From a virus (lineage: Duplodnaviria > Heunggongvirae > Uroviricota > Caudoviricetes > Straboviridae): 64,000 nucleotides of DNA. Both the position numbers and the translations under genes were made by a program. Under the pieces are notes generated by a model that was not told the origin of the DNA, made no database searches, and saw only the letters and a list, made by a program, of their open reading frames with translations. Within the stretch, counting starts at the first letter, position 1; each line of letters opens with the position of its first letter. Below are positions 10,325 to 48,562 of this stretch, piece by piece. The DNA is taken from IMG/VR virus record IMGVR_UViG_638275429_000001, positions 23,740 through 87,739 of that record; one strand, written 5' to 3'.

Positions 10325-10370
10325 ATTTGATGGGAATATTTTATCACACTCTGATGTCATTGTAAACTGT
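10325..10370 (-). promoter_or_regulatory. PeSL-type early promoter/stem-loop cassette (degenerate copy)
   Basis: tttgatggg...cattgtaaac motif; minus-strand GTTTAC -35-like box. Confidence 0.45.
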
Positions 10371-10374
10371 TTTG

Positions 10375-11175
10375 TTATTTCTTAGAAGCAGTTCTCCGGC
10401 AGTAATCTACGAAAAGTTCGACACGGCCAGCCGATGTTGTTGAGTTAAAGATTTTCGAAACGTCCCGACCGGTAACAGACCGAACTCCAAACTCTACACC
10501 ATTACCGATATGCACGACTGTGATAATGTAGAAAGCTCCACGTGATTCTGGCCAGGTCATATGCTTTGTGACATTACTTGGCACGTCATTCATTGAAAGC
10601 CGGCCGAATTCTAGCTCCAGAAACTGCTTGGCGCATGAGTTAGGATACATTGACTTTACCAGTTCGCAGAATTTAGTGGCCGCGCCCGGGTCTTCAAAAC
10701 AAACGACTGGTGGAATCGACAAAAGCGCCTTATATCCTGAAGAAGAAGTTTTCCAATAAGACTCATCAGTGTTAATGCCCTGGCTGCTCACCTCGACAAT
10801 ATCAGCTATGCTAGAGAGTTTGCTGTATTTTGCGAGATCGCGGGCATTGGCGTTTGCGTATTCGGACGATACAACTCGAACATCACAATTCAGATCTTCA
10901 TATTGCAGCTGACTGCTAACTTGTGCCATTTTTTCAACCTTCACCTTTTGGGTAGGGACATAAGGATTGTAAATTTTTTCCAGTGTCTTTTCGACATGAA
11001 TTCCTTTTCGGAGATTTCTAGAACTGGCAGCGGTATGCCTAATTCCATCTTTGACGTAATAATAATTCATTCGAGCCGCGTCATAGTGGACTATACCCGG
11101 ATAATTCATATTACCAGGTTTCTCGAAGATTTCACCTTCTTCTGGGTTGAGTCGTACAATCATAATAAACTCCAA
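10375..11175 (-). CDS. hypothetical protein (266 aa)
   Basis: ORF. Confidence 0.45.
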   Translation of the reverse strand: MEFIMIVRLNPEEGEIFEKPGNMNYPGIVHYDAARMNYYYVKDGIRHTAASSRNLRKGIHVEKTLEKIYNPYVPTQKVKVEKMAQVSSQLQYEDLNCDVRVVSSEYANANARDLAKYSKLSSIADIVEVSSQGINTDESYWKTSSSGYKALLSIPPVVCFEDPGAATKFCELVKSMYPNSCAKQFLELEFGRLSMNDVPSNVTKHMTWPESRGAFYIITVVHIGNGVEFGVRSVTGRDVSKIFNSTTSAGRVELFVDYCRRTASKK

Positions 11176-11204
11176 ATGTGGGCCTCCGGAGAGGCCCGTT
11201 TTGA

Positions 11205-11792
11205 TTACTTGAGGGAGTTGATATAGTCTTCAACTTCGCTCGAGGTAACTTCGGTGCGCTTGTCGCCATTGAAGGTTTCAATGCGCATCATCACATCGTT
11301 GACATCGATTTTGGTCAGAGCAGCCAGCTCGACTACATCATCAGCGCAGCTAATGCCCAGGGATTCGGCATTGCGAGTTTCGCGGATGTATTCCAGCTTC
11401 ACAGCCAAATCTTGACGTTGGTTATCCAGTGAGACAACGGCGTGCTTGATTTCATCACGCATTTTGACCAGCTCATCGGCTTTGTTGATCAGCGCCAGAC
11501 CTGTGCGACGGTACAGAATAGCCAGTTTGGCGTGGGTGTCAACCGGAATATTTTTTGTGATCAAACGGCGAATCTCATCGTCCTTGCGGATAGCTTCGAT
11601 TTCTTTTTCACTTGCGATTTTGCGAAGCCGCGCCTCTTCTTTTTCGGATTTCACGAAAACCTTTTCCAACTTGGTGATTTCAGTGATAACCTGGTCGGCA
11701 GCCTGGGTGTATTGGTCTTCGATAGACACGTTCTTGGTAACGAAAACGGAGACTTTGGTGCGAATAAATTGAGCCAGTTTCTTAAAGGACAT
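11205..11792 (-). CDS. coiled-coil protein, possibly PspA/IM30-like (195 aa)
   Basis: Heptad-rich, charged, PspA-like length; weak. Confidence 0.35.
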   Translation of the reverse strand: MSFKKLAQFIRTKVSVFVTKNVSIEDQYTQAADQVITEITKLEKVFVKSEKEEARLRKIASEKEIEAIRKDDEIRRLITKNIPVDTHAKLAILYRRTGLALINKADELVKMRDEIKHAVVSLDNQRQDLAVKLEYIRETRNAESLGISCADDVVELAALTKIDVNDVMMRIETFNGDKRTEVTSSEVEDYINSLK

Positions 11793-11801
11793 ATTTTAAC
11801 C

Positions 11802-12152
11802 TTACTTAGTTGACATTGGGATTGACAGAATACGCATTGTTTTGATTTCTCCGCGTTTCTTCGAATAAGCCAGCATGTTTGAATAACCTACGGTACGCTG
11901 GTTGTTTTTCGCAAAAGCTCGAATATTGCGAATTTGCTCATCTGTTGCAACGATACCAAACAACTTGTAGTGTTGGCACATGTCGGACCAGATGTTTATA
12001 CCTACCATTTTGGCCGTTTGCCAAGTGATCGGCTGCCTTCCTTTTCCTTCAGCATCGACATAACCTGTCCATGCTTTACCATTATTCGGCTTATAACCGA
12101 TGAGACTGAACATTTTGTCCATATCATCGATAACATTTTTAACATCTAACAT
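11802..12152 (-). CDS. hypothetical protein (116 aa)
   Basis: Downstream of PeSL copy 12172-12222. Confidence 0.45.
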   Translation of the reverse strand: MLDVKNVIDDMDKMFSLIGYKPNNGKAWTGYVDAEGKGRQPITWQTAKMVGINIWSDMCQHYKLFGIVATDEQIRNIRAFAKNNQRTVGYSNMLAYSKKRGEIKTMRILSIPMSTK

Positions 12153-12171
12153 TATGAACTCCTTGTCGTTT

Positions 12172-12222
12172 AACTTGTGACTATCCTAACACGTTGAAAT
12201 GGCATTGTAAACTGTTTTTCAA
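12172..12222 (-). promoter_or_regulatory. PeSL-type early promoter cassette (variant)
   Basis: ...ggcattgtaaactg; GTTTAC on minus strand. Confidence 0.45.
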
Positions 12223-12251
12223 ATAAAAACAACAAAAGGGCCCGAAGGCCC
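12221..12251 (-). terminator. Rho-independent terminator
   Basis: minus strand GGGCCTTCGGGCCC + TTTTGTTGTTTTTATTT. Confidence 0.7.
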
Positions 12252-14512: not shown

Positions 14513-14836
14513 TTAGCAGTTGTCGGAGGAGCTGAGCCAGTAACCGTTTTCATCATCGCCTTTTTCAGAGGCAGTAGATTCTTCCCAGGAGCTATGACCT
14601 TTAGGGTAATAAGTACGGCCATAGCCATAATCACCAGTGCTGAGCGTGATAACAGCGACGTCGGCAATAGTTTCAGCCAACTGCTCCGCCGAATCGCTGA
14701 TACTCATAACTTCTCGAGTAATTTCACGAGCTTTGGCTTTATCGCTTGTGTCGCCTTCTACGAAATCGCATATGGAATCTTCAATGCGGGCAATCTTGGC
14801 TTGCAGTTTTTGCAGTTCTTTCAGAATCAACATCAT
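14513..14836 (-). CDS. small acidic protein, paralog 1 (107 aa) with C-terminal WLSSS-x-C motif
   Basis: MMLILKELQKLQAKI...NGYWLSSSDNC; shares KELQKL and WLSSS motifs with downstream paralog. Confidence 0.5.
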   Translation of the reverse strand: MMLILKELQKLQAKIARIEDSICDFVEGDTSDKAKAREITREVMSISDSAEQLAETIADVAVITLSTGDYGYGRTYYPKGHSSWEESTASEKGDDENGYWLSSSDNC

Positions 14837-14861
14837 TTTTTTCCTATTTCATTGTTGTTTA

Positions 14862-14905
14862 ATGACATGAACATAATAAATCACATTCATGTCATTGTAA
14901 ACAAG
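14862..14905 (-). promoter_or_regulatory. PeSL-type early promoter cassette (variant)
   Basis: ...catgtcattgtaaac; GTTTAC minus strand. Confidence 0.4.
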
Positions 14906-14913
14906 TTTTTTGA

Positions 14914-16740
14914 TTATTTTACATGCTTGACCCGGTGTGCAACTTCGGATTGCTTACCTTTGTTGAACCCTCTTGCCAGAGGTGCGCCTAGATATCCGCA
15001 AACACGCCGAATTACCGACATCTTCGAAGAATCATGGTTTCCACATGCTGGGCAACTAAAGCCTTTTGATGTGCACTTGAATTCGCCATCGTAACCGCAA
15101 TCATAGCATTTATCTACGGGCGTGTTTGTGCCGAAATAAGAAAGATTTTCCATCGCGTAATCCCATATCTGCTCAAGAGCTTCAATGTTTCTACGCATGT
15201 TGGGCAGCTCAACGTAACTGATATGGCCGCCGGAAGCTATCCAATGGAAGTTCTTTTCGAAGTCGATTTTGTCGTACGGGTTAAGTTCGGCTTCAACAGG
15301 CACGTGGAAGCTATTGGTATACCAATCTTTATCCGTAACACCTGGGATAACACCGTATTTCTCACGGTCCAATCGTTGGAGTCGATCGCATAGGGATTCC
15401 GACGGTGTAGAATACAGGCTAAAGCTCCAGCCAGATTCATTTTTAGCGTCAACACACATATTATGCATTAGCGCGGCAACATCTTCAGCAAATTTCCTTG
15501 CCCTTGGTGAAGCCGCTGTTGATTCTCCAGTCATATGAAGTGCAGCTTCATATAGCCCGATGTATCCGATCGATATCGAGGCTCTCGGCTTCAGATGAGG
15601 CAGAAATTCTTCTTCCGGATCAAGGTAAAGGCCGAATGCGCCTTCGGTATAAAGGATTGGAGCTACTTTTGCTTTCGCACCTTTAAGCCATTTGATTCGT
15701 TCCATCGATGCTTCATATGAGATAGCGAATCGAGATTTCAGCAATTCGTAAAATGTGTCAACGTTTCCATTTGATTCTATGGCAATTCTTGGAATGTTGA
15801 TAGAGACCACACCTAAGTTGTTGCGGCCATTCAATTCACCTGATTCTATACCAGCCAGAAAAGACCGGCAACCCATTGGACTAACAGGCACCTGACTACC
15901 AGTGATGGATCGGTTGTTTTTCGCGCTGATAATGTCAGGGTACATGCGCTTGGTTGCACATTCCATAGCAAGCTGTTTAATTTCATAGTTTGGATCTCCT
16001 TTACATAAATTCAGGCCATCTTCCATAAACATGACGAGTTTTGGGAAAACAGGCGTAATTCCGTTTTTGCCTAAACCTTTAATGCGAACATTGAGAATCG
16101 CCTTCTGGATTTCGCGCTCGAACCAGTTAGTTCCCATGCCAAATGTTATCGTCACGAATGGAGTTTGTCCGTTCGTGGTGAACATTGTGTTGACTTCATA
16201 TTCGAAAGCCTGAATGCCGTCGTAAATTTCTTTTTGCGTTAGCTCGTCTGCGTATATGCCTGCATCGTTGTTAGGCAAACCAAATCGACGGGCCATGGCT
16301 AAATGTTTTTCCCATGATTTCACAGCATACTTCGCCAACACTTGGTCAATATTCGCCAAAGTCGTTCCGCCATACTGGTGAGAAGAGACCTGAGCAGTTA
16401 TTTGAGCCATAATGGCACACGCAACACCAAACGATTTTGGTTGCTCGATATGGGCATCGCCCATTTTGAATCCACGAGAAAGCATACCGCCTAAGTTAAC
16501 TAGGCAACAGTTTGTCATTGGTATTGTGAATGCATAATCCATATCGTGGATGTGGATATCGCCGCTCTTGTGCGCTTGTAGGAGGTGGATCGGGAGTATG
16601 CTGGCGGAAAAGTCTTTTGATGCGATTGATGCCATCATATCGCGCATGGTGGGAATCACGTCAGCGTTTTTATTCGCGTTTTCGTTGTGGGATTCAGATT
16701 GGCCCCTTACTAACTCTTTGACCTGGGTTCTTATTGTCAT
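14914..16740 (-). CDS. nrdD: anaerobic ribonucleoside-triphosphate reductase NrdD (class III RNR), intron-free
   Basis: 608 aa; C-terminal glycyl-radical motif RRVCGYLG and zinc ribbon CYDCG...CPACG; precedes gene 49 as in T4. Confidence 0.92.
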   Translation of the reverse strand: MTIRTQVKELVRGQSESHNENANKNADVIPTMRDMMASIASKDFSASILPIHLLQAHKSGDIHIHDMDYAFTIPMTNCCLVNLGGMLSRGFKMGDAHIEQPKSFGVACAIMAQITAQVSSHQYGGTTLANIDQVLAKYAVKSWEKHLAMARRFGLPNNDAGIYADELTQKEIYDGIQAFEYEVNTMFTTNGQTPFVTITFGMGTNWFEREIQKAILNVRIKGLGKNGITPVFPKLVMFMEDGLNLCKGDPNYEIKQLAMECATKRMYPDIISAKNNRSITGSQVPVSPMGCRSFLAGIESGELNGRNNLGVVSINIPRIAIESNGNVDTFYELLKSRFAISYEASMERIKWLKGAKAKVAPILYTEGAFGLYLDPEEEFLPHLKPRASISIGYIGLYEAALHMTGESTAASPRARKFAEDVAALMHNMCVDAKNESGWSFSLYSTPSESLCDRLQRLDREKYGVIPGVTDKDWYTNSFHVPVEAELNPYDKIDFEKNFHWIASGGHISYVELPNMRRNIEALEQIWDYAMENLSYFGTNTPVDKCYDCGYDGEFKCTSKGFSCPACGNHDSSKMSVIRRVCGYLGAPLARGFNKGKQSEVAHRVKHVK

Positions 16741-17210: not shown

Positions 17211-17239
17211 AAGAATTCCTCCATATGCTCTTATTTAAC

Positions 17240-20667: not shown

Positions 20668-20810
20668 TTTATCAATCTCGCGATTATGGTGGAGCCGATT
20701 ACTGCGGCAGCGCAACCAAGAACAAAATAGGCATCACCTTTGTACATAGCGTAAAACAAACCGAATGAAGCGATATAACCAGCATTGATTACGATATTTT
20801 TGGTGGACAT
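20666..20810 (-). CDS. small hydrophobic peptide (48 aa, predicted TM)
   Basis: MSTKNIVINAGYIASFGLFYAMYKGDAYFVLGCAAAVIGSTIIARLIK; starts 20 nt after PeSL copy with AAGGAG SD. Confidence 0.4.
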
Positions 20811-20830
20811 TTAAATTACTCCTTGGTAGA

Positions 20831-20872
20831 TTTGATGGGACTATAATAATCCATAGTCCCATCATTGTAAAC
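20831..20872 (-). promoter_or_regulatory. PeSL early promoter/stem-loop cassette (canonical copy)
   Basis: tttgatgggactataataatccatagtcccatcattgtaaac; minus strand GTTTAC-N17/18-TAnnnT with -10 in hairpin loop. Confidence 0.6.
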
Positions 20873-20883
20873 TACTTTTTCAC

Positions 20884-21609
20884 TTAAATTCCAAAATCTT
20901 CTGACAGACGTCTTTTCACTTCGGCGCGCAGGTTCAGAATTTTATGCTTTACATCGCAAGCTTCATCACTAAGTGCTTCCAACTTAATAGTCAGCTCGGA
21001 AATTTGTTTGAGTTGATCGGTCAAACCTTCCAAGTTTTCGCCTGTATGAGAACGCTCAACCTGGTCGATGCGCTCGGTGGAAGCGTGCATTTCAACTGCT
21101 TTCGGCTTCGCCGGACGAACTCGAGTTTTCTTTTCAATAGTCTCGATTCGACGAGTCCGGGTCAAAACCGCCAAATTATGATAATGAGCCCAGTTAGTGC
21201 TGAAAATTTCGATGCCAAGCAGTCTGGCGATTTTCACAGCGTCATCGTTTAATGACAACTTGATTTCGCGAACAGTTGCTTTCGCTGCATGATAGTGATA
21301 TTCGGTTTCGACAACCGAACCGCGAGGGTGAAGCAGTGTTTCCTTCATAACCCGATCAACCTTGGTCCAAAACCAAACAGGCAGAAATCTTGAACCAAAT
21401 TGATGCGTAGGCCACTGTGTTTTTTCGCCAGAGACGCCCATGATACGCAGGACAGTACGCGTATGAATGCAATCAAGTCGCGGATCGGTCATACTGTTCA
21501 ACACGTTCCGAATTGCGGCAATATCGTTGAATCGGCGCCGTTCGTGCTTTTTGATGGTTCGTGCTATTGCTTTTCCACTTGACATATCTTTTTCTCCGGA
21601 AACAAACAA
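20884..21609 (-). CDS. hypothetical protein (241 aa)
   Basis: ORF. Confidence 0.45.
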   Translation of the reverse strand: MFVSGEKDMSSGKAIARTIKKHERRRFNDIAAIRNVLNSMTDPRLDCIHTRTVLRIMGVSGEKTQWPTHQFGSRFLPVWFWTKVDRVMKETLLHPRGSVVETEYHYHAAKATVREIKLSLNDDAVKIARLLGIEIFSTNWAHYHNLAVLTRTRRIETIEKKTRVRPAKPKAVEMHASTERIDQVERSHTGENLEGLTDQLKQISELTIKLEALSDEACDVKHKILNLRAEVKRRLSEDFGI

Positions 21610-22491: not shown

Positions 22492-22733
22492 TTGTTTAAT
22501 CCTCGTGTAATTGCAATAACAACCAAACTGAATACGATCGTTGCACCAAATGTTTTTATTGCCATAGCAGTTTCACCTACAGCACACATTGCAGCGCCAA
22601 CACCGATCATGGTTGTTGCAAAAGTGCCAGTGATAGCATCAATTCTTGTTACTGGTTTATTTGCGATTTCTTTTGCACTTTGTCGCTTTGCGAAATCAAT
22701 CGATTGCAGATTGGTTGCCTTTGTGATTTTCAT
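22488..22733 (-). CDS. small membrane protein (81 aa)
   Basis: hydrophobic C-terminal half; directly downstream of PeSL copy. Confidence 0.45.
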   Translation of the reverse strand: MKITKATNLQSIDFAKRQSAKEIANKPVTRIDAITGTFATTMIGVGAAMCAVGETAMAIKTFGATIVFSLVVIAITRGLNK

Positions 22734-22748
22734 TTAAAGTACTCCGTG

Positions 22749-22790
22749 TGTAGCTTGATTTGATGGGACTATAGTAATCCATAGTCCCAT
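22749..22790 (-). promoter_or_regulatory. PeSL early promoter/stem-loop cassette (canonical copy)
   Basis: tttgatgggactatagtaatccatagtcccatcattgtaaac. Confidence 0.6.
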
Positions 22791-22807
22791 CATTGTAAAC
22801 AGTCTTT

Positions 22808-23785
22808 TTAACGATTTTTTAGATATTCAAGCATCGCATCACTATAGACGTCAAGAACGAACTGGTTCCATGGTTCCACGTTAACCGCTGATGGCATGCC
22901 GTTTCGGCCAGCTTCTTTTGCAGCAGCGTCAACATCGTCAACGATCTGTTCAAGGCGAGCTTGCACTTCTTTGAATGGCAATTCACCAGCTTTAACCAGT
23001 TTGATTTCTTCGGCATTGGCCAATGGATACTTCAAATCGCCAGTCTGGTAGATTTCGAGCAACTGTAGACCGCCTCGCATCGCATGACTCAAAGCTTTCC
23101 AGTCGATACCTTCGTTGGCTTCAGCTTTACGGGCTCGTTCGCCGTACTCGTTCCAGAGCTTGTCGACAGCACCAGCAAACTCAGCAATTTTAACACCGGC
23201 CATATACTTACGACCCATCATTGTGTAGTACGAGTTAGTCTCTGGTTTTTCGCGATCGACCGTCCAGAAGCAAAATTCATTTGATGGCAGAGGTATTTTG
23301 AGTTCACGCAGACGAGGGTTTTCATGAATCTGAAGCGCATCCATGAAGTCCTTAACCTGTCGCAAAGCGGCCAGTCGAGAACCTTTCACACCATATTTCG
23401 CCGCCTGCTTCATGACATAGCTCATATAAGATGTCATGTTTGTTGTATAGAAACTCGAGCGTTGACTTTGGATAAACTGCCAAATCGCGGAGTCAGAAAC
23501 GATTTTGTCGGTTGGTGTGTGAAGCATATCGAGAGCAGCAGTTTCGCCTTTGACGCACTCATGAATGAATTGCTTAAGCGTAAACATTTCGATATCGATA
23601 TCATCCTTGCTGTTTTTGGATTTATCGTTGCCGGTTGTGATGGAATAACTTGATTTAACTTGTGATAGCAAGATATCTTTCGGATCAGGTATGAAAATGC
23701 CTTTCATATCCAGGTCAGATTCGGGTGTGTTCAGACCGTAAAGGTGAGAGCCGTGCAGACCCTCGAAAATAACTTTTTGCATCAT
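22808..23785 (-). CDS. Pol-beta-superfamily nucleotidyltransferase-like protein (325 aa)
   Basis: N-terminal FEGLHGSHLYGLNTPESDLDMKGIF = hGS...x9...[DE]hDh NTase motif, followed by DIDIE third acidic. Confidence 0.55.
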   Translation of the reverse strand: MMQKVIFEGLHGSHLYGLNTPESDLDMKGIFIPDPKDILLSQVKSSYSITTGNDKSKNSKDDIDIEMFTLKQFIHECVKGETAALDMLHTPTDKIVSDSAIWQFIQSQRSSFYTTNMTSYMSYVMKQAAKYGVKGSRLAALRQVKDFMDALQIHENPRLRELKIPLPSNEFCFWTVDREKPETNSYYTMMGRKYMAGVKIAEFAGAVDKLWNEYGERARKAEANEGIDWKALSHAMRGGLQLLEIYQTGDLKYPLANAEEIKLVKAGELPFKEVQARLEQIVDDVDAAAKEAGRNGMPSAVNVEPWNQFVLDVYSDAMLEYLKNR

Positions 23786-24298: not shown

Positions 24299-24639
24299 AT
24301 TTCTCCAACAGCAATTTCGTACATTTTAAGAACTTTGTCAAAAGGCAATTCGCCGAGATTGTGGTTTTTAACCCATTCGATTAAATCGCCGGACTCGATT
24401 AGCGGTGCATCAGTTATTTCGAGATATTTGCTAACTTCAGAAGCGTTAAATTCATAGTCGTATCCTGAATTGATTCGCTGGCCATTACGATCAATTGCTA
24501 TGAAATGGTTTTTGTTGCCGGTGTTGACAAGGCCAAAAATCCATTTTCCCAAGATGCGGTGTATTACTTTGTTCACACCGGTGCCATTAATGAATTCCTC
24601 GATCAACTCAGAGTCATCTTTAAATTTATAGAATTGCAT
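24295..24639 (-). CDS. hypothetical protein (about 114 aa; start revised to MQFYKF after PeSL hairpin)
   Basis: GAGGATAAAATT-ATG SD; longer ORF start would lie inside the repeat hairpin. Confidence 0.4.
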   Translation of the reverse strand: MQFYKFKDDSELIEEFINGTGVNKVIHRILGKWIFGLVNTGNKNHFIAIDRNGQRINSGYDYEFNASEVSKYLEITDAPLIESGDLIEWVKNHNLGELPFDKVLKMYEIAVGEI

Positions 24640-24656
24640 AATTTTATCCTCATAAT

Positions 24657-24704
24657 CTGGGTGTGACCATTTTATCACACCCATCGTGTTTAGTAAACGA
24701 TTTT
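24657..24704 (-). promoter_or_regulatory. PeSL-type cassette variant (gggtgtga...tcacaccc hairpin + gtttagtaaac)
   Basis: palindrome plus GTTTA(G/C)-box. Confidence 0.4.
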
Positions 24705-24711
24705 CTACAAA

Positions 24712-25806
24712 TTAAATGCCAGTGAAACGAGATATAATTTCAGCGTGATCATCGAACATACGCGCTCTGTTCTTTTTGTAGATGTGCATAGGCATCCAGA
24801 ACGCAGCTTTGGCATCGTCGTCAGCATTAACAGCCGGCAATTCACCGTTTGGGCCAGGACTGAGAACAATGTAATACGCAACAGTTGGCTTGCAGAATTC
24901 CGCGGTGCGCTTCGGGTGATCGAAAACTTCGTGCGCTTTGATAGAACCGATGATATCTTTTTCTTTGACCTCGATCTTGACTTCCTCAAAAAGTTCACGA
25001 ACAGCACATTGTTGGAAGGTCTCGTTCGCGTTCTTATGGCCACCGGGAAGGGCTAAAGCGTCTTTGCCAGGAGCATGCTTCCGCTCAATGAGCAAAATGT
25101 GGTTATTGCAGGTTACCACAGCATCAGCAGTATTGCAATTCAGAGCTTCGCGATATGGGTAATTCTCGAACTTCGCGAGTTCGTTATCCCACATTTTGCG
25201 CTCTTCCATCAAGCGGTCGCGGAGTTCGCGACCTTCAGTGTTCCAATATACGGAAAGGAAAGATCGCACTGTTGGGTTAATCGGGAATGCGCCGTTGATT
25301 ACGCCAGTTCGAAGAAACTCGTCGCGCATTGGGGTGTTTGAAATATCCGCCCCGTGGTTTTGAACACCCATACATTGAATATGATCCCAGCCGAAAGAGC
25401 GAATCCAATAAGAATCAGCATCTTTATCATAAGCCACCATTGCGACTTTTTCGCCAGCCTTTTCGCCAGCCTGTTCGCGAACTTCCGCCTGCCAACGATC
25501 TTCGTTGTACCGGTAATCCGGTACGTTGCCGAAAGTTACGCGTTTTTGCTCATATGGAGTCAAGTTCTCAGACATCCATTCCTTGAACATTCTAACGCGA
25601 ACCAGCGTAGGCAATGGGTTAATTGTGTTTGGGTAGCAATGAGATGAGCCAAAAACAACAGCTACGTTTTCGGCTGTCTGCAATGCTTTGTAGATAAGCA
25701 TTTCATGACCACGATGGAAAAAGCTGGAAAAACGACCAATTACTACAGCACGATCATAATCATAAGTCATATCATTAACCCCGATTTTTGTAACTGTTGA
25801 TTGCAA
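24712..25806 (-). CDS. natV: bifunctional NMN adenylyltransferase / Nudix hydrolase NatV (NadM-like)
   Basis: 364 aa; [11 protein letters not shown] (GxFxxxHxGH cytidylyltransferase motif) and Nudix box [26 protein letters not shown]. Confidence 0.85.
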
Positions 25807-26423: not shown

Positions 26424-26807
26424 TTAGTGAAAGGTCGGGGCAACTGGTTTAACCAGCATCTGGGTAGCAACAACGTTGAAACCAGCTTCTTCGAGACGGG
26501 AAATAACCTTGATCCAAGGAGCTCGGCTCATAGCGTAGTTGACGTCCAAAACGATAGTGCCGTATTGGTCGAATGCCTCCAGGTCGTCAAACATTTCAGG
26601 TTTTGCTTGTGCGAGCGCAGTTGAAATGATGTAGCGATTCTGCATGGCCGGATTTTCTGAACTGAAAGCCGTCAGACGACGAAGAATTTCGGTATACGGC
26701 ATTTCGTCAGAAACGAACATAACTTCGTGATGTTGTGCAGCCTCGAATGCGGACTTGATAGCTTCTTGAGTTTTGCCAGCGTTTGCAGTACGAAGAATGA
26801 GTTTCAT
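26424..26807 (-). CDS. hypothetical protein with Walker-A-like TANAGKT (127 aa)
   Basis: downstream of PeSL copy 26827-26868. Confidence 0.4.
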   Translation of the reverse strand: MKLILRTANAGKTQEAIKSAFEAAQHHEVMFVSDEMPYTEILRRLTAFSSENPAMQNRYIISTALAQAKPEMFDDLEAFDQYGTIVLDVNYAMSRAPWIKVISRLEEAGFNVVATQMLVKPVAPTFH

Positions 26808-26826
26808 TGTTATTTCCTTTGGTTTA

Positions 26827-26868
26827 TTTGATGAGGCTATTCTAATTCAATATGTCGTTGTTGTAAAC
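26827..26868 (-). promoter_or_regulatory. PeSL-type cassette (variant)
   Basis: tttgatgaggctattcta...gttgttgtaaac. Confidence 0.45.
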
Positions 26869-27008
26869 TTGTTTTTGAAAAATAATTTAAAAGAAACAGA
26901 TTGTCGCTTCGCGACTCGGGCAAGCCCGAAATCTTTCTTTCTCCAATCTATTTCTCTTCTTTTTCTGTCTCTCAACCATTGTAACAGAATTCTATCACAC
27001 CGGCGGTG

Positions 27009-27327: not shown

Positions 27328-27528
27328 TTATTTCACCATCAAGAATTTAGCATTTTTAAAGACATCGCGATAGTCACTGAGGTCGACGGTTTCGTAAAAA
27401 TCACCGTGCTCATTTGCAACCTTCAGCACACCGTGGCACCATTTAAAAGTATCGGCCCACGGTTTGTGATTGTGAATCCATGTAGCAACAAACTGGCCAG
27501 AAGTAGGCATTTTGAATTTAGTTTTCAT
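27328..27528 (-). CDS. hypothetical protein (66 aa)
   Basis: downstream of PeSL copy 27547-27590. Confidence 0.4.
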   Translation of the reverse strand: MKTKFKMPTSGQFVATWIHNHKPWADTFKWCHGVLKVANEHGDFYETVDLSDYRDVFKNAKFLMVK

Positions 27529-27546
27529 TTTTTAACACTCTGTTGT

Positions 27547-27590
27547 TTGAACATGCGACTATCCTATCACGAGTCGTCGTCATTGTAAAC
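27547..27590 (-). promoter_or_regulatory. PeSL-type cassette (variant)
   Basis: ...gtcgtcgtcattgtaaac. Confidence 0.4.
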
Positions 27591-27642
27591 ATTCTTTTCA
27601 ATAAAAACAAAAATAGCCAGCACAATGCTGGCTATCGTTCGT

Positions 27643-30381: not shown

Positions 30382-30570
30382 TTACGAAAAATAATACGAG
30401 TTGTGCAAACCATGTCCGTTCGCATATCGACGTGCTTCTTCATAGCCGATAACATTTGAAAGCATACGGAAAGTTGTTTTGCGATCGAGGTCATCGGCAC
30501 ACCATTTCAGGTTTTCAAGAAACTTAGCTTTCGCCTCGATACCTTTTTCGCTATCAATTTCAAAAATCAT
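30382..30570 (-). CDS. hypothetical protein (62 aa)
   Basis: directly downstream of PeSL copy; CCAAGGAGTAATTT-ATG. Confidence 0.45.
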   Translation of the reverse strand: MIFEIDSEKGIEAKAKFLENLKWCADDLDRKTTFRMLSNVIGYEEARRYANGHGLHNSYYFS

Positions 30571-30588
30571 AAATTACTCCTTGGCAGA

Positions 30589-30630
30589 TTTGATGGGACC
30601 ATAGTAAACCATAGTCCCATCGTTGTAAAC
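30589..30630 (-). promoter_or_regulatory. PeSL early promoter/stem-loop cassette (canonical copy)
   Basis: tttgatgggaccatagtaaaccatagtcccatcgttgtaaac. Confidence 0.6.
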
Positions 30631-30644
30631 TACTTTTTCAAAAA

Positions 30645-31253: not shown

Positions 31254-31257
31254 TTAA

Positions 31258-32468: not shown

Positions 32469-32732
32469 TTATGGCTTGGCAGTTACGGTGATTACGGATT
32501 CATTTCGGAATGAGTCAGATTTGGCATCATAACCGAGGCTTCGTAGATAATCTACAATATCTTTTGGCATTATGGCCGGGAATTTGGCAACGTCGAAAGA
32601 TATTTTAAACGATCGTTGGCGTATCATCTCGTCGGCGACAAATTTGCCAACGGGAGCGAGTTTGCGTTTAAGTTCTTCGGTGGCAAATTGCTGGGCCATG
32701 AGTACTTGTGCATAAACATCTGAACTTTTCAT
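32469..32732 (-). CDS. hypothetical protein (87 aa)
   Basis: downstream of PeSL variant 32750-32792. Confidence 0.4.
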   Translation of the reverse strand: MKSSDVYAQVLMAQQFATEELKRKLAPVGKFVADEMIRQRSFKISFDVAKFPAIMPKDIVDYLRSLGYDAKSDSFRNESVITVTAKP

Positions 32733-32749
32733 AATGTTTTTCTCATTTG

Positions 32750-32792
32750 GTTTAACATGAGGCTATTCTATACAAAACAGCCTCATTGTAAA
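32750..32792 (-). promoter_or_regulatory. PeSL-type cassette (variant, gaggctattcta...cagcctcattgtaaac)
   Basis: hairpin + GTTTAC box. Confidence 0.45.
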
Positions 32793-32804
32793 CAACTTTT
32801 TAAT

Positions 32805-33380
32805 TTATTTTTGAATTTTGCCTTCTTTCCAATGGCGACGACAGACCGATATGAAACGGTCATTGCCTCCGATTGAAACACGAGGACCCCAAATCTTTTC
32901 ACCATGTTCATTCATTCGCATGGTCATTGTTGCTTTCTTACCACACCAACAGATAGTCTCATGCTCAACTTTTCGTTCGGCCAATACTAAAAGCTCCGCT
33001 GATGCAGGGAAAAGATGCCCATTTGAGTCAGACAATAAGCCGTAGCACATAACAGGCACATTGATGTAGTCTACAACATCACCTAACTGATGAACCTGAT
33101 CAACCGTGAGGAACTGAGCTTCATCAACGAGAATGCAGTCAATTCCATCTAGCTCGATCAGTTTTTCGCAAAAGGCTTTAAGGTTATCGTCTTGGCTGAT
33201 CATATGCGCTTTTTGCGATATGCCGATACGCGAAGAAACATTATCGCCGTCACGGGTATCAATCGCTGGCTTAAGAATAAGCGGCTTCATGTTCCGCTCC
33301 ATGTAGTTGTACGCTACCTGAAGCAAGTGAGTTGATTTACCTGAATTCATAGCAGCATAATGGAAGTGCAATTTCGCCAT
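32805..33380 (-). CDS. tk: thymidine kinase
   Basis: 191 aa; MAKLHFHYAAMNSGKSTHLLQ (P-loop) and C-terminal zinc-binding cysteines; matches T4 Tk N-terminus. Confidence 0.9.
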   Translation of the reverse strand: MAKLHFHYAAMNSGKSTHLLQVAYNYMERNMKPLILKPAIDTRDGDNVSSRIGISQKAHMISQDDNLKAFCEKLIELDGIDCILVDEAQFLTVDQVHQLGDVVDYINVPVMCYGLLSDSNGHLFPASAELLVLAERKVEHETICWCGKKATMTMRMNEHGEKIWGPRVSIGGNDRFISVCRRHWKEGKIQK

Positions 33381-35304: not shown

Positions 35305-35532
35305 TTAAACGATGATTTCAAAGAATTTACGTTCGCTCATGAAAATCATGATATAAAAACCTTCAACTTCAATACAGTTTTTATTAGAGTCAACGATCTC
35401 GATAGTACCATCGTTTAGCCGATTTTCCGAAGGCCACCAGTTCATTCCTAAAAATTCAGCAATGACTTTATTTGCCGGCCGGATAGCGATGAATTCACCT
35501 CGACTTATTTTGGATTTGAATCGAACTTTCAT
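35305..35532 (-). CDS. hypothetical protein (75 aa)
   Basis: downstream of PeSL variant 35560-35594. Confidence 0.4.
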   Translation of the reverse strand: MKVRFKSKISRGEFIAIRPANKVIAEFLGMNWWPSENRLNDGTIEIVDSNKNCIEVEGFYIMIFMSERKFFEIIV

Positions 35533-35559
35533 TTTAATTACTCCGTTGTGTTTAACTTG

Positions 35560-35594
35560 AGGCTATAGTAATCCATAGCCTCATAGTTGTAAAC
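35560..35594 (-). promoter_or_regulatory. PeSL-type cassette (variant, gaggctatagtaatccatagcctcatagttgtaaac)
   Basis: same loop (tagtaatcc) as canonical copies with compensatory stem changes. Confidence 0.5.
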
Positions 35595-35596
35595 AT

Positions 35597-36148
35597 TTAT
35601 TTGTAAATGAATTCCATACTTTTAAGACGTTGGTTTTTCGAAAGAACGCGATCAGCATACCCAAGCCCAGCTTTGTAGTTCCAACCAGCGTTGTATGATG
35701 CCAAAGCCAATCGGATGTTGCCTTTTCGAACAGTCAGCCAATAGTGCAATTCGTCCATTGCCCATTCAGCGGAACCGCTTCGCGTTTCGAGGTCCTTTTT
35801 CAGATACCAATGACGAAACGGAATACCTCGTTGGTCCATCTTCTTAACAACAGTTTTGTAAAGATTCTGGAACATACCATAAGCATGGTGTCCTTTCTTT
35901 GAACGACCTGTGTTAAGACCAGCTGAAGATTCTTCCCATGCTATCGCCGCAAACAGAGTACCAAGGTGCCGCTGATTAAGGAAATTCGGGTGATCAACAT
36001 CTCGCTGATTTCCCATAAGGTCGTAACCTTTGCCATAGTAGTAGGCGTATGAAAGATTCGTTTTCTGAGTGTCCGTAAAATCTGGTGCCGACGGACCGGC
36101 AAAAACATGTGAGGTGAAAAGTAGGATTAGTATTGTCAAAAACCTCAT
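35597..36148 (-). CDS. secreted soluble lytic transglycosylase (SLT domain) with signal peptide
   Basis: 183 aa; signal MRFLTILILLFTSHVFA; AIAWEESS (catalytic Glu), GMFQ, ASYNAG SLT motifs. Confidence 0.65.
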   Translation of the reverse strand: MRFLTILILLFTSHVFAGPSAPDFTDTQKTNLSYAYYYGKGYDLMGNQRDVDHPNFLNQRHLGTLFAAIAWEESSAGLNTGRSKKGHHAYGMFQNLYKTVVKKMDQRGIPFRHWYLKKDLETRSGSAEWAMDELHYWLTVRKGNIRLALASYNAGWNYKAGLGYADRVLSKNQRLKSMEFIYK

Positions 36149-36594
36149 AAACCCTCCACTTTGATTACGCGGGTCGTCACATTCGATGATAAACGTCGAC
36201 TATTAACGATAGCCATTCTGCATGTGATCGCGGAACTGTATTCGCCGGATGGTGGTATTTTTGAAGTTGTTAAACCGATCCAGAGGTTGCCATCTGTAAT
36301 CTCCAGACGTATTGGCCTGTATTGCACTTGATCGTCGCGCTTGAGATCCAATGTCGGGGGATATGGCAAAGACATGTGCTCGTCAATCGCATCGAGATGA
36401 TCGTCGATTCGGTTAACTAGCTGTAAAACATAGTCGACGTCGATCTTGCGTATGATCAAATCATCTATGAAGTGGTAGGTGTATTCGAGGTGAAACTTGT
36501 GAGAACCTTGTCTCGTATTACGAGAGGCTTCAATACGACTATTGATTTCTTTAAATTTGTCCTCGAGGACTCTCCTGAGTTTGTAGCGATTCAT
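36145..36594 (-). CDS. hypothetical protein (149 aa)
   Basis: downstream of PeSL variant 36607-36652. Confidence 0.45.
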   Translation of the reverse strand: MNRYKLRRVLEDKFKEINSRIEASRNTRQGSHKFHLEYTYHFIDDLIIRKIDVDYVLQLVNRIDDHLDAIDEHMSLPYPPTLDLKRDDQVQYRPIRLEITDGNLWIGLTTSKIPPSGEYSSAITCRMAIVNSRRLSSNVTTRVIKVEGL

Positions 36595-36606
36595 GATATT
36601 CTCCTA

Positions 36607-36652
36607 TGTTGATTCAGGGTACATTCTATCACGCATTTTTGTGGTTGTAAAC
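36607..36652 (-). promoter_or_regulatory. PeSL-type cassette (degenerate)
   Basis: ...tttttgtggttgtaaac. Confidence 0.35.
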
Positions 36653-36660
36653 ATTGGCGG

Positions 36661-36688
36661 AAAACAAAAATGGGCTCCTAGGAGCCCA
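36661..36688 (-). terminator. Rho-independent terminator
   Basis: minus strand GGGCTCCTAGGAGCCC + ATTTTTGTTTT. Confidence 0.65.
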
Positions 36689-36692
36689 TCAT

Positions 36693-40590: not shown

Positions 40591-40678
40591 CATAATGATT
40601 TCCTCATGTTTTTGTTTGGATTGATTTGATGGAGTAATCATATCATTGAATACCAAAACATGAACATGCTATTGAAAA

Positions 40679-45461: not shown

Positions 45462-46025
45462 TCTTAAAAACTGTCTATCTTTATTTCTTTCGGTATTAAA
45501 GATTCGCAAAACGTCATCGAGCTGAGTTGAAGTGTTATCTACCCACTCGCCGTTTGCACCAAACATAAAATGCAGTTGTTTTTCTGTCTTAAAGCGGTCA
45601 TGGGTAAAGAAGTATGTTTGAATTTTATAATCACGAAATGGCGAATAACTTTGATATGTAGCCAATCGGTCGTATACTGATATGGTGCTGCCAATTTTAA
45701 AATGTCCAGGCCAAGCCGGATTGGTTAACACATATACATAACCTTCGCGAATACTAGAAGCTTTACCTAATCGATTATATTTAACATTTAGTAATGATCT
45801 ACGAACGTAGTTCAATTGCGAGCAAACACTCTTAATATAAGATGAGTTTTTGCGTAAAAATGGCAACTTAGTTGTGCGATATATGTGATTGAAGAAAATT
45901 CTTTTAACGAGATCATCTGTTATTTCAAAGTCGTAACAAGCGCACTCAAGTTCTAGATAAGTTGAATATCGAGCAATCACATCATTCATAATAAATTTCC
46001 ACAATTTAGTGCAACGGAATTCCAA
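45435..46025 (-). CDS. T5orf172/MUG113 (GIY-YIG-like) domain protein, putative homing-endonuclease-like mobile gene in tRNA cluster
   Basis: 196 aa; C-terminal GYVYVLTNPAWPGHFKIGSTISVYDRLATYQ matches T5orf172 signature (GxVYxxxN...KIGxT....R). Confidence 0.5.
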   Translation of the reverse strand: MEFRCTKLWKFIMNDVIARYSTYLELECACYDFEITDDLVKRIFFNHIYRTTKLPFLRKNSSYIKSVCSQLNYVRRSLLNVKYNRLGKASSIREGYVYVLTNPAWPGHFKIGSTISVYDRLATYQSYSPFRDYKIQTYFFTHDRFKTEKQLHFMFGANGEWVDNTSTQLDDVLRIFNTERNKDRQFLRASLTQLAE

Positions 46026-46064
46026 CCAGTATTGGTTATGTTACGGTAATTCCGATGCGAAATT

Positions 46065-46147
46065 TGGTGGAACGCCTTGGACTCGAACCAAGAATGCCAG
46101 AGGCGAGCGGGTTACAGCCGCTTGGGATACCATTACCCGAACGTTCC
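46065..46147 (-). tRNA. tRNA-Tyr (anticodon GTA), type II
   Basis: acceptor GGAACGT/GCGTTCC + A + CCA; anticodon arm AGCGG-CTGTAAC-CCGCT; long variable arm; T-arm CTTGG-TTCGAGT-CCAAG. Confidence 0.7.
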
Positions 46148-46160
46148 AATAAATTGGTTT

Positions 46161-46766: not shown

Positions 46767-46850
46767 TGGTAGGAGAGGAGGGACTCGAACCCTCAATCCC
46801 GAAGGCGGGAGGTTTTAAGCCTCCTGTGTATGCCGTTCCACCACACTCCC
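46767..46850 (-). tRNA. tRNA-Leu (anticodon TAA), type II
   Basis: acceptor GGGAGTG/CTCTCCT (1 mismatch) + A + CCA; anticodon arm GGAGG-CTTAAAA-CCTCC; variable arm CGCCTTCGGGATT; T-arm GAGGG-TTCGAGT-CCCTC. Confidence 0.65.
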
Positions 46851-46994
46851 ACAAATAACTCCAGGTGCTCGGGTCTATACTTCCCCGTTTACCGAAGCCC
46901 AGTCCATCCGCCGTAACTTAATCGGTTCAATATTAAGGATGTAACCGCTTCGCTTCCTTACCGCATCGCACCGACCTTTTGTTATTTCGTATAT

Positions 46995-47186
46995 CTATTT
47001 ATAACGATCTGGCAGATGAATTATTGCCCTAGAACCACAAACGGGGCAACCTGGCTGTCTGTTCAATAGACCTTTCACCTTTTGCCATGAACACTCCCTG
47101 AGTGTCCAGGTTTTACCACAACCCCAGCAAACGTTTTCAAGGTCATGCAGCCGTTCAGCGTATCGAGTAATGTCACGATTCGTCAT
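46995..47186 (-). CDS. zinc-ribbon protein (63 aa)
   Basis: CWGCG...CPVCG. Confidence 0.45.
   Translation of the reverse strand: MTNRDITRYAERLHDLENVCWGCGKTWTLRECSWQKVKGLLNRQPGCPVCGSRAIIHLPDRYK
46997..47004 (-). promoter_or_regulatory. T4-type late promoter core TATAAATA (minus strand) upstream of tRNA cluster
   Basis: exact TATAAATA on minus strand; only exact match noticed by eye. Confidence 0.3.
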
Positions 47187-47613
47187 TGTCGTACAGTCTC
47201 ATAACAATATCGCATTTTTCATCTGGTTTTTCACCGCGGCATCGCGCAAAATGAGGATACTCGAAGGTCAAACCGGTTCCTGGAATCTGGCTATCATGAC
47301 CAGCATAGCATTCCATAAGAGTCTGTTCAAGACAACAGCTCATCATCGAGATGAAGAAACCTTTAAGCTCAGGTGGCACTTTGATGGTGACAATACTGTC
47401 GTCAGCGATTTCATAAGGACCTTCGAGACCACCTGATGTTTTGTCGACCAGCTGACGAATACTGTTTGGAGCATCAAAATAGTCATTTCGATCAGATACG
47501 TTAGTTGAAGGTCTTTCAGAATAAACCCAAAGCTCGCCGTCAGCGTCAACAGCGTAATTGGTAAATTCGTCGTCAACTTCATAAGTTTTTCCGGCGTGTT
47601 CAAACTTTTTCAT
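47173..47613 (-). CDS. hypothetical acidic protein (146 aa)
   Basis: ORF. Confidence 0.45.
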   Translation of the reverse strand: MKKFEHAGKTYEVDDEFTNYAVDADGELWVYSERPSTNVSDRNDYFDAPNSIRQLVDKTSGGLEGPYEIADDSIVTIKVPPELKGFFISMMSCCLEQTLMECYAGHDSQIPGTGLTFEYPHFARCRGEKPDEKCDIVMRLYDNDES

Positions 47614-47859
47614 CTAAATCTCCTCCGCTATCAATTCCAACTGTTTTTCGAGTTCGTCTTTGTCAGTGTTCCAGACCAAATTCTCTTGACCATTGTGTAT
47701 GTCTTGGGCGTATGGACACAGATCCCAATACACAGTTGATTTGAATGGGATACTCAATATATCATCATCCCAGGAGTCAAAGCGCTCGTCTAGCCACTCC
47801 CGCAGTGATTCCCATGATTTAAACGTCTTTTCTTTGCCAGTAGGCGAAATAGTTTTCAT
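47614..47859 (-). CDS. hypothetical protein (81 aa)
   Basis: ORF. Confidence 0.4.
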   Translation of the reverse strand: MKTISPTGKEKTFKSWESLREWLDERFDSWDDDILSIPFKSTVYWDLCPYAQDIHNGQENLVWNTDKDELEKQLELIAEEI

Positions 47860-48275
47860 TCGTTACCCTCGCAATCAATGCCAATCGACTCGCTGCGCCC
47901 GTAATAGCGACCATCTGACACAAAACCTGCCGCAATGCAATGCCCGATATCATGACAATAATCGAATGCAATATGAACCATTGCATTAAGAACATCAACA
48001 TGATTGAGCTCTTTTGAGAAAATCGCCTCGATGGTCCTCGCATTGTCGCGGTCAATCAGAATCCGAACAAATTTGAATTCATGGTCAGGATCGATTGATC
48101 GTAGTGCAACAACGCCACGCGGCCGGAACCAATTATTGTAGCTGCCAGGGTAATAAATCTGAGTTGCTTCCAAAACTTCAACGGCTAATGTATGCTCATT
48201 GACTTTGTCACTCAACCCACTGATGTTCATGGAAATTTGAAAGGGATAGCCTTTTTCACACAGATCGTAGATCAT
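47856..48275 (-). CDS. hypothetical protein (139 aa)
   Basis: ORF. Confidence 0.45.
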   Translation of the reverse strand: MIYDLCEKGYPFQISMNISGLSDKVNEHTLAVEVLEATQIYYPGSYNNWFRPRGVVALRSIDPDHEFKFVRILIDRDNARTIEAIFSKELNHVDVLNAMVHIAFDYCHDIGHCIAAGFVSDGRYYGRSESIGIDCEGNE

Positions 48276-48287
48276 ATAACAATTTCC

Positions 48288-48500
48288 TCACAAGGTATAT
48301 TGATGCTTAGCTGCTACTTGACGGGCTGCCTTTTCCATACTGCGGAATTGCGCAGTGTCATTCTTGAAAGTGCAGTCGATAACTTGATCATTTTTGAACA
48401 TTATCCAGCACGAAATGCCGAAGCGGTAATGACCGCGAATCATGTCAACTTTTGTGATACCATTAACTTTAGCAATATGCTGCGGGTGGTAGATTTTCAT
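48288..48500 (-). CDS. hypothetical protein (70 aa)
   Basis: ATG 20 nt downstream of canonical PeSL with AAGGAG SD. Confidence 0.45.
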   Translation of the reverse strand: MKIYHPQHIAKVNGITKVDMIRGHYRFGISCWIMFKNDQVIDCTFKNDTAQFRSMEKAARQVAAKHQYTL

Positions 48501-48520
48501 TTAAATTACTCCTTGGTAGA

Positions 48521-48562
48521 TTTGATGGGACCATAGTAAACCATAGTCCCATCATTGTAAAC
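48521..48562 (-). promoter_or_regulatory. PeSL early promoter/stem-loop cassette (canonical copy)
   Basis: tttgatgggaccatagtaaaccatagtcccatcattgtaaac, identical to copy at 30589 except one base. Confidence 0.6.

Follow-up and report, generated by a model that had tools for sequence, protein, structure and literature searches.

Predicted early promoters of Aeromonas phage 44RR2.8t in compact PeSL-type cassettes: covarying embedded hairpins and their complementary distribution with upstream terminators

The stretch of DNA considered here, hereafter the window, comprises 64,000 nucleotides (positions 23,740 to 87,739 of virus record IMGVR_UViG_638275429_000001), and a 12-kb piece of it is 100% identical to Aeromonas phage 44RR2.8t (AY375531 / NC_005135; Straboviridae, Biquartavirus), a T4-like virus of Aeromonas salmonicida. 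A position in the 44RR2.8t record is the window position plus 23,739; positions below are those of the window unless the record is named. The region studied is the early nrd-tk-vs-regB-tRNA region, where every gene lies on the minus strand. A repeated palindromic element upstream of small genes had been described here in an earlier reading of the bare sequence, the original prediction, which took the phage to be KVP40-like; that origin is ruled out by the identity to 44RR2.8t. The elements are very probably sigma-70-dependent early promoters of 44RR2.8t, carried in compact cassettes of the promoter-early stem-loop (PeSL) type that Arbiol et al. 2010 defined in RB49/phi1 (PMC2839356). The original prediction had also favoured a PeSL and T4 early-promoter reading, and the architecture does fit the published definition: the cassettes possess sigma-70-like hexamers, an AT-rich upstream region, a stem-loop in or next to the promoter, a Shine-Dalgarno (SD) sequence with a start codon, and an intergenic site. 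Promoter anatomy, strand, position, covariation of the stems, their exclusivity with terminators and the concerted evolution of the copies are all read from the sequence.

Listing every GTTTAC in the window gave 13 minus-strand promoters of the GTTTACA type, with the 5' G of the box at 10367, 12212, 14902, 20872, 22800, 24698, 26868, 27590, 30630, 32793, 35594, 36652 and 48562. The layout is common to all of them: an A-rich stretch, GTTTACA, a spacer, TAnnAT, about 7 nt, a leader, an SD and an ATG. All 13 are intergenic and, as had been claimed, stand directly 5' of a minus-strand SD and ATG. The T4 early-promoter architecture had likewise been recognised, but with a spacer of 18 bp; when the -35 box is read as TTTACA the distance to TAnnAT is the canonical 17 bp, and 16 bp at 32793. 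After the shift of 23,739 each of the 13 coincides with one of the 36 early promoters that Nolan et al. 2006 predicted in 44RR, with coordinates (PMC1524935, Additional file 3), and a 14th published promoter, Pe:74160, falls just beyond the range of the original prediction. Fourteen sites had been listed there; 13 are the promoters above, placed within a few bases of where they were found, although 22749 should be about 22759. The remaining site, 40611, lacks both the GTTTAC box and the palindrome, is not on the published list and lies under the threshold of the position weight matrix (PWM) described below; it is at best a degraded or weak promoter. The core consensus GGGACYATAGTAAWCCATAGTCCC itself occurs four times in the window at three mismatches or fewer (20837, 22765, 30595 and 48527), where none would be expected by chance.

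Genome-wide, the predicted 44RR early promoters precede early genes, on the strand that carries them, and show the features of the T4-type early-promoter model (described in PMC1524935), with GTTTAC at -36 to -31, TAnnnT at -12 to -7 and an A-rich UP-like element around -42. An A-run (e.g. GAAAAAGTA or AAAAACA) abuts the -35 box on its 5' side in all 36. The PWM has the consensus TTTTTCAAAAAACAGTTTACAA and gave 37 minus-strand and no plus-strand matches in a whole-genome scan; its training set was these 36 published sites, which makes the number of matches circular and leaves the absence of plus-strand matches as the informative result. All the published sites are intergenic. Neither the random orientation nor the frequent placement inside genes that the original prediction had named as contrary observations was therefore seen. 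A generic sigma-70 scan is uninformative on its own (43 and 38 matches against 38 expected); only the specific TTTACA-17-TAnnAT class with its UP region is meaningful. Throughout, +1 is the last base of the published 51-nt model, the A that follows CCC, CTC or CAC.

Embedded in many of these promoters is a hairpin of 11-14 bp, located 5' of the cassette's own predicted start. Its 5' arm lies at -24 to -17, inside the promoter spacer, and its 3' arm at -8 to -1, where it takes in the GC-rich discriminator and the last two positions of the -10 box, with pairing that often extends to -27 and +3. The -10 box had been thought to sit simply in the loop of the palindrome; in fact the last 2-4 nt of the hexamer fall in the 3' arm. 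Eight of the 13 window promoters have the hairpin (14902, 20872, 22800, 24698, 30630, 32793, 35594 and 48562), with folds of -14 to -22 kcal/mol and z-scores of -4.5 to -6.8, compared with +1.4 for the hairpin-less 12212. The earlier statement that the variant copies retain a palindrome thus holds at 14902, 24698, 32793 and 35594, but there is none at 10367, 12212, 26868 or 36652 and only a weak one at 27590, these five having a core minimum free energy (MFE) of 0 to -7 kcal/mol. Over the 36 promoters of the genome the core MFE is bimodal, with 14 at or below -13 kcal/mol. The stems belong to at least six unrelated sequence families (GGGACTAT, GAGGCTAT, AGTGCTAT, ATGGATAT, GGGTGTGA and GACATGAA). 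Rfam gave 16 tRNA matches in the window and none at the hairpins. The individual sites are as follows, all on the minus strand; terminator-type cassettes have a GC hairpin and T-run directly 5' of the promoter, and Pe numbers are the published promoters.

20810..20886, minus: GGGAC-type cassette (Pe:44625; 31repeatB_1 in phage 31), hairpin 20833-20864; its parts are the ORF075c stop codon, UP region, TTTACA, 17 bp, TATTAT, predicted +1 A, 26-nt leader, SD AAGGAG and the ATG of 44RRORF074c; RNA fold -19.3 kcal/mol, z = -6.2.
22733..22814, minus: GGGAC-type cassette before 44RRORF079c (Pe:46553; 31repeatB_2), hairpin 22761-22792, core MFE -21.8.
30570..30644, minus: GGGAC-type cassette before 44RRORF095c (Pe:54383), hairpin 30592-30621 with two sense-strand G.U pairs.
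48500..48576, minus: GGGAC-type cassette before 44RRORF125c (Pe:72315; 31repeatB_4), hairpin 48523-48554, core MFE -21.5.
35532..35608, minus: GAGGC-type cassette before 44RRORF106c (Pe:59347), hairpin GAGGCTAT/ATAGCCTC at 35555-35587, fold -17.6, z = -6.7.
32732..32807, minus: GAGGC-type cassette before 44RRORF099c (Pe:56546, with the published note '1 bp del'), spacer 1 bp shorter, hairpin 32757-32786, core MFE -17.0.
24639..24712, minus: cassette before 44RRORF082c (Pe:48451), stem GGGTGTGA/TCACACCC at 24659-24682, fold -16.6, z = -4.8; its -10 box TAAAAT lies in the loop and its 3' arm reaches about +4.
14833..14916, minus: cassette before 44RRORF064c (Pe:38655), stem ATGACATGAA/TTCATGTCAT at 14863-14894, fold -16.9, z = -4.5.
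12152..12251, minus: terminator-type cassette before 44RRORF057c (Pe:35965), GC hairpin and T-run 12238-12251 (TransTerm terminator at record 35977-35990), promoter 12176-12226, then SD and ATG; no embedded hairpin, core fold -0.9, z = +1.4.
27528..27636, minus: terminator-type cassette before 44RRORF088c (Pe:51343), terminator 27612-27636 (record 51355-51371), promoter 27554-27604; weak internal pairing, core MFE -7.1.
36594..36690, minus: terminator-type cassette before regB (Pe:60405), terminator 36669-36690 (record 60411-60426), promoter 36616-36666; no embedded hairpin.
50350..50444, minus: terminator-type cassette before the DksA/TraR-like 44RRORF130c (Pe:74160), terminator at record 74168-74183; just beyond the range of the original prediction.
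10307..10381, minus: early promoter before gene 55.2, a T4 homologue (Pe:34120), with neither an embedded hairpin nor a called terminator, core MFE -3.9.
26807..26915, minus: early promoter before 44RRORF086c (Pe:50621), in which the GAGGC stem is reduced to its 3' half (ATAGCCTC), core MFE 0.0; a weak 5-bp terminator-like hairpin lies at 26903-26915.
40594..40678, minus: the intergenic site 40611 before 44RRORF113c, with TATGAT and ATCAAATC, without a TTTACA box and without a palindrome.

The genes behind the 13 cassettes had been called novel small open reading frames (ORFs); 11 are indeed hypothetical ORFs, but two, 55.2 and regB, are homologues of T4 genes. Nor is the SD context the same in every copy: CCAAGGAGTAATTT is common only to the GGGAC copies at 20872, 30630 and 48562. 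The first 8-9 predicted transcribed nucleotides (+1 to +9, e.g. 20828-20836 and 35550-35558) are conserved in two alternative forms, A-TCAAATC accompanying CCC discriminators and GGGAC stems, and A-AGTTAAAC accompanying CTC discriminators and GAGGC stems. The same two leader forms are also found in hairpin-less promoters, and the conserved leader extends past the 3' end of the published 51-nt model. The discriminators themselves are GC-rich (AGTCCC or AGCCTC), as in promoters under stringent control, and the phage encodes a DksA/TraR-type zinc-finger protein (ORF130c) and an HD-type (p)ppGpp-hydrolase-like protein (ORF168c, 44RR record 109848-110315); any link between these proteins and the discriminators is speculative. 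A different arrangement is seen at Pe:109554 (44RR record 109505-109554, window-equivalent 85766-85815, outside the window), where the leader, up to the SD, is paired to the spacer and -10 region in a 14-bp long-range stem, CGCAGGTTTGGTTA / TAACCAAACCTGCG; its 3' arm would lie inside the promoter's own transcript.

Several lines of evidence indicate that the pairing is selected. Native combinations of spacer and -10/discriminator fold with an average of -8.7 kcal/mol, compared with -4.8 kcal/mol for permuted chimeras, and none of 2000 permutations was as low. In the syntenic regions of phiAS4 (Tulanevirus, about 76% nucleotide identity in aligning genes) and UP87, orthologous sites retain the hairpin despite a changed sequence. 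At the ORF074c site GGGACTAT/ATAGTCCC in 44RR corresponds to GGGAACAT/ATGTTCCC in the orthologue, and at the ORF106c site GAGGCTAT/ATAGCCTC corresponds to GAGGTTAT/ATAACCTC in phiAS4, both being compensatory changes; UP87 has GGGGTTAT/ATAGCCTC at the latter site, with G.U pairs. The stem at the ORF079c site differs in the phiAS4 orthologue by a change of A-U to G.U, and the entire stem of the ORF064c site is replaced in phiAS4 by the unrelated GTGCAGATGT/ACATCTGCAC. At the ORF099c site the hairpin is degraded in phiAS4 (-4.7) and retained, with a G.U pair, in UP87. In an ungapped alignment of 18 same-register elements from three phage lineages, 92.6% of cells are paired compared with 34-48% when the partner is slid; both sides have changed in eight of the 12 stem pairs, and none of 500 shuffles reaches any of the observed measures, although the aligned hairpins are related sequences and these numbers are indicative rather than probabilities. 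The claim that the stems differ by compensatory changes is therefore borne out.

The changes that affect only one side of a stem suggest which strand is paired. In the eight core pairs there are eight G.U and no A.C combinations on the minus (sense) strand, and over all 12 pairs the counts are 12 and 4. The sense fold is the more stable in all 15 hairpins compared. Three 44RR copies with G.U/A.C changes in mid-stem fold at -18 to -21.5 kcal/mol in the sense and at -9 to -13.7 kcal/mol in the antisense orientation; for the ORF095c cassette (30630) the values are -21.1 kcal/mol (z = -6.8) and -13.0. Because the single-sided changes of the core stem are G.U on the sense strand and A.C on the other, and because the hairpins are exclusive with terminators, the evidence favours a stem that forms as a single-stranded structure of the sense strand, most simply as RNA. 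The same asymmetry does not fit a double-stranded palindrome bound by a dimeric protein, or a symmetric cruciform.

That exclusivity was apparent when the hairpins were compared with the TransTerm list of Nolan et al., in which a canonical GC hairpin with a T-run lies directly 5' of 12 of the 36 early promoters. None of the 14 hairpin promoters has such an upstream terminator, compared with 12 of the 22 others (Fisher p = 7e-4). Junctions of the hairpin type are also compact, with 64-80 nt between genes and the upstream stop codon inside the UP region; those of the terminator type measure 95-114 nt. From the exclusivity and the junction sizes, embedded hairpins and upstream terminators appear to do the same job at the end of the upstream unit in two different ways. 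A second repeated family, of the terminator type, was seen elsewhere in the genome, where three near-identical terminator-plus-promoter cassettes (ggcctcttcggaggcctttgttgtttttattgaaatctttttcacaaaacaGTTTACA) lie at 44RR record positions 4153-4239, 9976-10060 and 166705-166791.

Host RNA polymerase would fire the predicted promoters right after infection, so expressing the first gene of each small early unit. The order of parts is the upstream stop codon, an A-rich UP region, TTTACA, 17 bp, TAnnAT, a GC-rich discriminator, the predicted +1 A, a leader with conserved TCAAATC or AGTTAAAC, an SD (frequently GGAG) and the start codon ATG. In roughly 40% of cassettes the spacer is complementary to the discriminator and the adjoining end of the -10 box and would form the hairpin; as transcription is predicted to start immediately 3' of the stem, this hairpin would be found only in read-through RNA from the co-oriented upstream gene. 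The hairpin would then be the stem-loop half of a PeSL, an attenuator/terminator or 3'-end barrier that insulates neighbouring early units, as the GC-hairpin and T-run terminators would do before most other early promoters. Such a role was proposed and partly tested by Arbiol et al. for the stem-loops of RB49/phi1, which often overlap the -10 box or may sit between the promoter boxes; lacZ was lowered by one of these stem-loops much as by rrnB T1, and about 13,000 Miller units were measured for one PeSL promoter (PMC2839356). Tentatively, the proposal may be taken further: at compact junctions the embedded hairpin would stand in for canonical terminators as an RNA element without a U-tract, a single stretch of 24-32 nt serving both as DNA promoter core and as insulator in read-through RNA, and the repeats would be kept uniform by ongoing gene conversion that also moves promoter-plus-ORF cassettes. 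If the U-tract-less insulator were real, upstream early transcripts would be ended or trimmed in a non-canonical way.

Several observations weigh against this interpretation. The embedded hairpins have no U-run, being followed by AUCAAAUC or AAGUUAAAC, and none was called terminator-like on the minus strand by the same rule that calls the upstream terminators of the terminator-type cassettes. Efficient intrinsic termination is doubtful because of the missing U-run, and for the same reason we rejected the hairpins as classical intrinsic (Rho-independent) terminators; true termination may be no more likely than attenuation, pausing or 3'-end protection. Since both hairpin and terminator are missing from about 10 of the 36 promoters, an early promoter does not always come with a stem-loop. 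The promoter copies belong to duplicated cassette families and so cannot be counted as independent, and the Fisher, cell-count and sign statistics given above therefore overstate the significance. Finally, the sense strand of the extended -10 region is G/T-rich, which may account for part of the G.U excess near the loop.

A plausible though less likely variant is that the hairpin is a 3'-end stabiliser or processing barrier rather than a terminator or attenuator, and shields the upstream mRNA from 3' exonucleases after RegB or RNase E has cut in the leader or in the SD (GGAG). The lack of a U-tract after the stem is as such a role would have it, and the sense-strand G.U bias and the covariation fit it equally well. 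Furthermore, the phage encodes RegB, and GGAG occurs within the SD of seven of the 13 window cassettes (e.g. 20815-20818, 30575-30578 and 36600-36603), 15-30 nt 3' of the hairpin; in T4, RegB cleavage at GGAG in early mRNAs is established and autoregulation of regB is described (PMC3014915), and the 44RR regB cassette likewise has GGAG in its SD. The other six cassettes are without GGAG, however, and the exclusivity with true terminators suggests an equivalence with termination, though terminator hairpins also stabilise 3' ends. Stabilisation and attenuation are not separated by the sequence.

Alternatively, the inverted repeat could act in DNA, either as a cruciform or non-template-strand hairpin that modulates the promoter, for example in shut-off, or as the target of a structure-specific recombination enzyme such as endonuclease VII. 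The repeat spans the -10 box and discriminator, so its extrusion would inactivate the promoter; the mechanism of T4 early-promoter shut-off is described as incompletely understood (PMC3014915), Arbiol et al. speculated on a stem-loop-binding recombination protein (PMC2839356), and concerted evolution shows that the copies recombine. Single-stranded DNA tolerates G.T pairs, so that the strand bias is compatible with a non-template-strand hairpin. A cruciform, however, requires pairing on both strands, yet the three 44RR copies noted above have G.U/A.C changes in mid-stem. A role in DNA does not predict the complementary distribution with RNA terminators, and homologous recombination among repeats of 60-70 bp needs no hairpin. 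We consider this explanation unlikely; in a more remote variant, a non-template-strand or cruciform form may participate in shutting off the early promoters.

The original prediction had concluded that the DNA palindrome and not the RNA is the functional part, as an operator for a dimeric phage or host regulator. A palindrome over the -10 box is the classic position for a repressor, and an inner CTAT...ATAG is common to several stem families. These shared bases are, however, explained by the -10/discriminator consensus and are present also in promoters that lack the 5' arm. There are at least six unrelated stems, orthologous sites swap stems completely, and no half-site is conserved; single-sided changes are wobble-compatible on one strand only, which is irrelevant to recognition of double-stranded DNA, and the palindrome is absent from 22 of the 36 early promoters. 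Together with the exclusivity with upstream terminators, this makes an operator highly improbable. Least credible of all is that the hairpin is a functionless passenger of one ancestral duplicated cassette, for although there are 4-7 near-identical GGGAC copies per genome, independent stem sequences share the geometry, orthologous sites show double changes that keep the pairing, covariation is seen in 8 of 12 pairs, and a spacer that is otherwise unconstrained in sigma-70 promoters matches its own discriminator (0 of 2000 permutations).

The cassettes themselves also appear to recombine. A 79-nt GGAC-type cassette is present in 4-7 copies per genome in 41 records of Aeromonas T4-like phages. 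Within a genome the paralogues are 86-97% identical compared with 71-76% for 44RR/phiAS4 orthologues, and the leader is lineage-specific, with TCTACC in four 44RR copies and TCAAYA in the phiAS4 copies. Because paralogues are more alike than orthologues and share this lineage-specific leader, the data point to gene conversion among the copies. By this route near-identical copies of 60-70 bp would recombine and mark spots at which ORFs are swapped, inserted or lost between lineages.

The shuffling of whole cassettes, which the original prediction had proposed, is compatible with the data but only weakly supported. In its favour, slots vary behind conserved cassettes: those of ORF095c and ORF106c are replaced or absent among 44RR, phiAS4 and UP87, and where two other ORFs take the place of ORF106c, in phiAS4 and in UP87, the homology stops in the leader, between AGTTAAAC and the SD. 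ORF082c is missing from phiAS4 together with its promoter, and the whole ORF130c cassette and ORF are absent from both phiAS4 and UP87. On the other hand, no cassette-bounded indels were found relative to phage 31, which is collinear outside the tRNA cluster, or to avDM5. The latter lacks 2.7 kb (window 28635-31368), a deletion that ends inside ORF091c and ORF097c and so takes out a cassette rather than using one. Compared with phiAS4, 12 of 78 genes have no homologue, and four of the 12 are the first gene behind a promoter; the difference between genes directly behind a promoter (4/14) and those elsewhere (8/64) is not significant (p = 0.14).

Some other differences between these genomes were observed. 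The avDM5 deletion includes the glutathionylspermidine-synthase-like ORF093c, and its ends share an 8-bp overlap; in the same phage the gene 49 (endonuclease VII) region (window 16754-17245) is replaced by an ORF of 1074 nt. The tRNA cluster (window 45287-46150) is the one place in the region where 44RR and phage 31 are not collinear. The two differ there in ORFs, with 44RRORF121c in the one and PHG31p119nc in the other, and in tRNAs, neither tRNA-Trp nor tRNA-Gly being annotated in this stretch of phage 31. A repeat of about 112 nt, distinct from the promoter cassettes, lies at window 6313-6424 (minus) and 52350-52461 (plus), two of its six copies in the genome; the 44RR record describes '6 copies of repeated sequence in intergenic regions' and the phage 31 record names it repeatA. 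When folded, either strand forms three or four hairpins, at about -40 kcal/mol, and Rfam gave no match to the repeat.

The promoters, the repeat and the PeSL concept are already in the literature or in GenBank, and since they are known no new question is raised. The sites of Nolan et al. 2006 are the very same as those described here, and in the phage 31 record (AY962392) the four GGGAC copies are annotated as 31repeatB_1 to 31repeatB_4, 'similar to 44RRrepeatB'; these sources give coordinates and logos only, and a term search of the main text of Nolan et al. found no mention of a stem-loop, hairpin or palindrome. A similar search of Petrov et al. 2010 found PeSLs, promoters and repeats all unmentioned. 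A literature search for a PeSL catalogue of phages 44RR, 31 or 25 gave only the remark of Arbiol et al. on PeSL-like sequences in the g43A/g43B spacer of 44RR2.8t and phage 25, 'data not shown' (PMC2839356). The novelty that had been claimed for KVP40-like hosts does not survive, as Comeau et al. 2014 extended PeSLs to PST/T4 and nt-1/KVP40 (PMC4122927) and the 44RR promoters were published in 2006. As far as the literature search shows, the complementary distribution of hairpins and terminators, the formal covariation, the asymmetry of wobble pairs between strands and the concerted evolution are unpublished additions, and are incremental refinements. If the interpretation holds, they would be the clearest sequence-only evidence so far that PeSL stems are selected as sense-strand structures, in copies under gene conversion, and would lend modest support to the idea that gene shuffling in the plastic regions of T4-like genomes is driven by conserved regulatory cassettes.

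The closest known system is that of RB49/phi1 (PMC2839356), whose PeSLs have the same order of parts, with an AT-rich region, sigma-70-like boxes 17 bp apart, a stem-loop, an SD and an ATG. Like the 44RR cassettes they are multi-copy, co-oriented with early genes, mostly placed before small ORFs of unassigned function and tied to ORF replacement and indels. They differ in a -35 box of TTGACA rather than TTTACA and in polyG/polyC stems rather than those of the GGGACTAT or GAGGCTAT type; the indels between the closest relatives of 44RR, unlike those of RB49/phi1, are not cassette-bounded. Promoter and terminator activity and mini-circles were shown by experiment in RB49/phi1, whereas the 44RR elements are predictions from sequence. 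The PST/T4 PeSLs (PMC4122927) have essentially the same promoter consensus as 44RR, TTTACW-N17-TAYWAT, and 'half' or degraded elements occur in both. The stem-loops of PST lie just 5' of the promoter, like those of the 44RR terminator-type cassettes, while the embedded geometry (-24 to -1) makes the 44RR hairpins an RB49-like subclass. As promoter-plus-ORF units gained or lost as a block, the ORF082c and ORF130c cassettes also resemble morons and integron cassettes; morons, however, have unrelated promoters and terminators and are inserted by illegitimate recombination, and integron cassettes depend on attC sites and an integrase, whereas in 44RR the promoter repeat is the presumed patch of homology and no recombinase is implicated. 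The genus of 44RR, Biquartavirus, is distinct from the PST/T4 and nt-1/KVP40 phages, and if our interpretation is correct the 44RR/31/25 group of Aeromonas T4-like phages would be the fourth lineage with PeSL-type cassettes.

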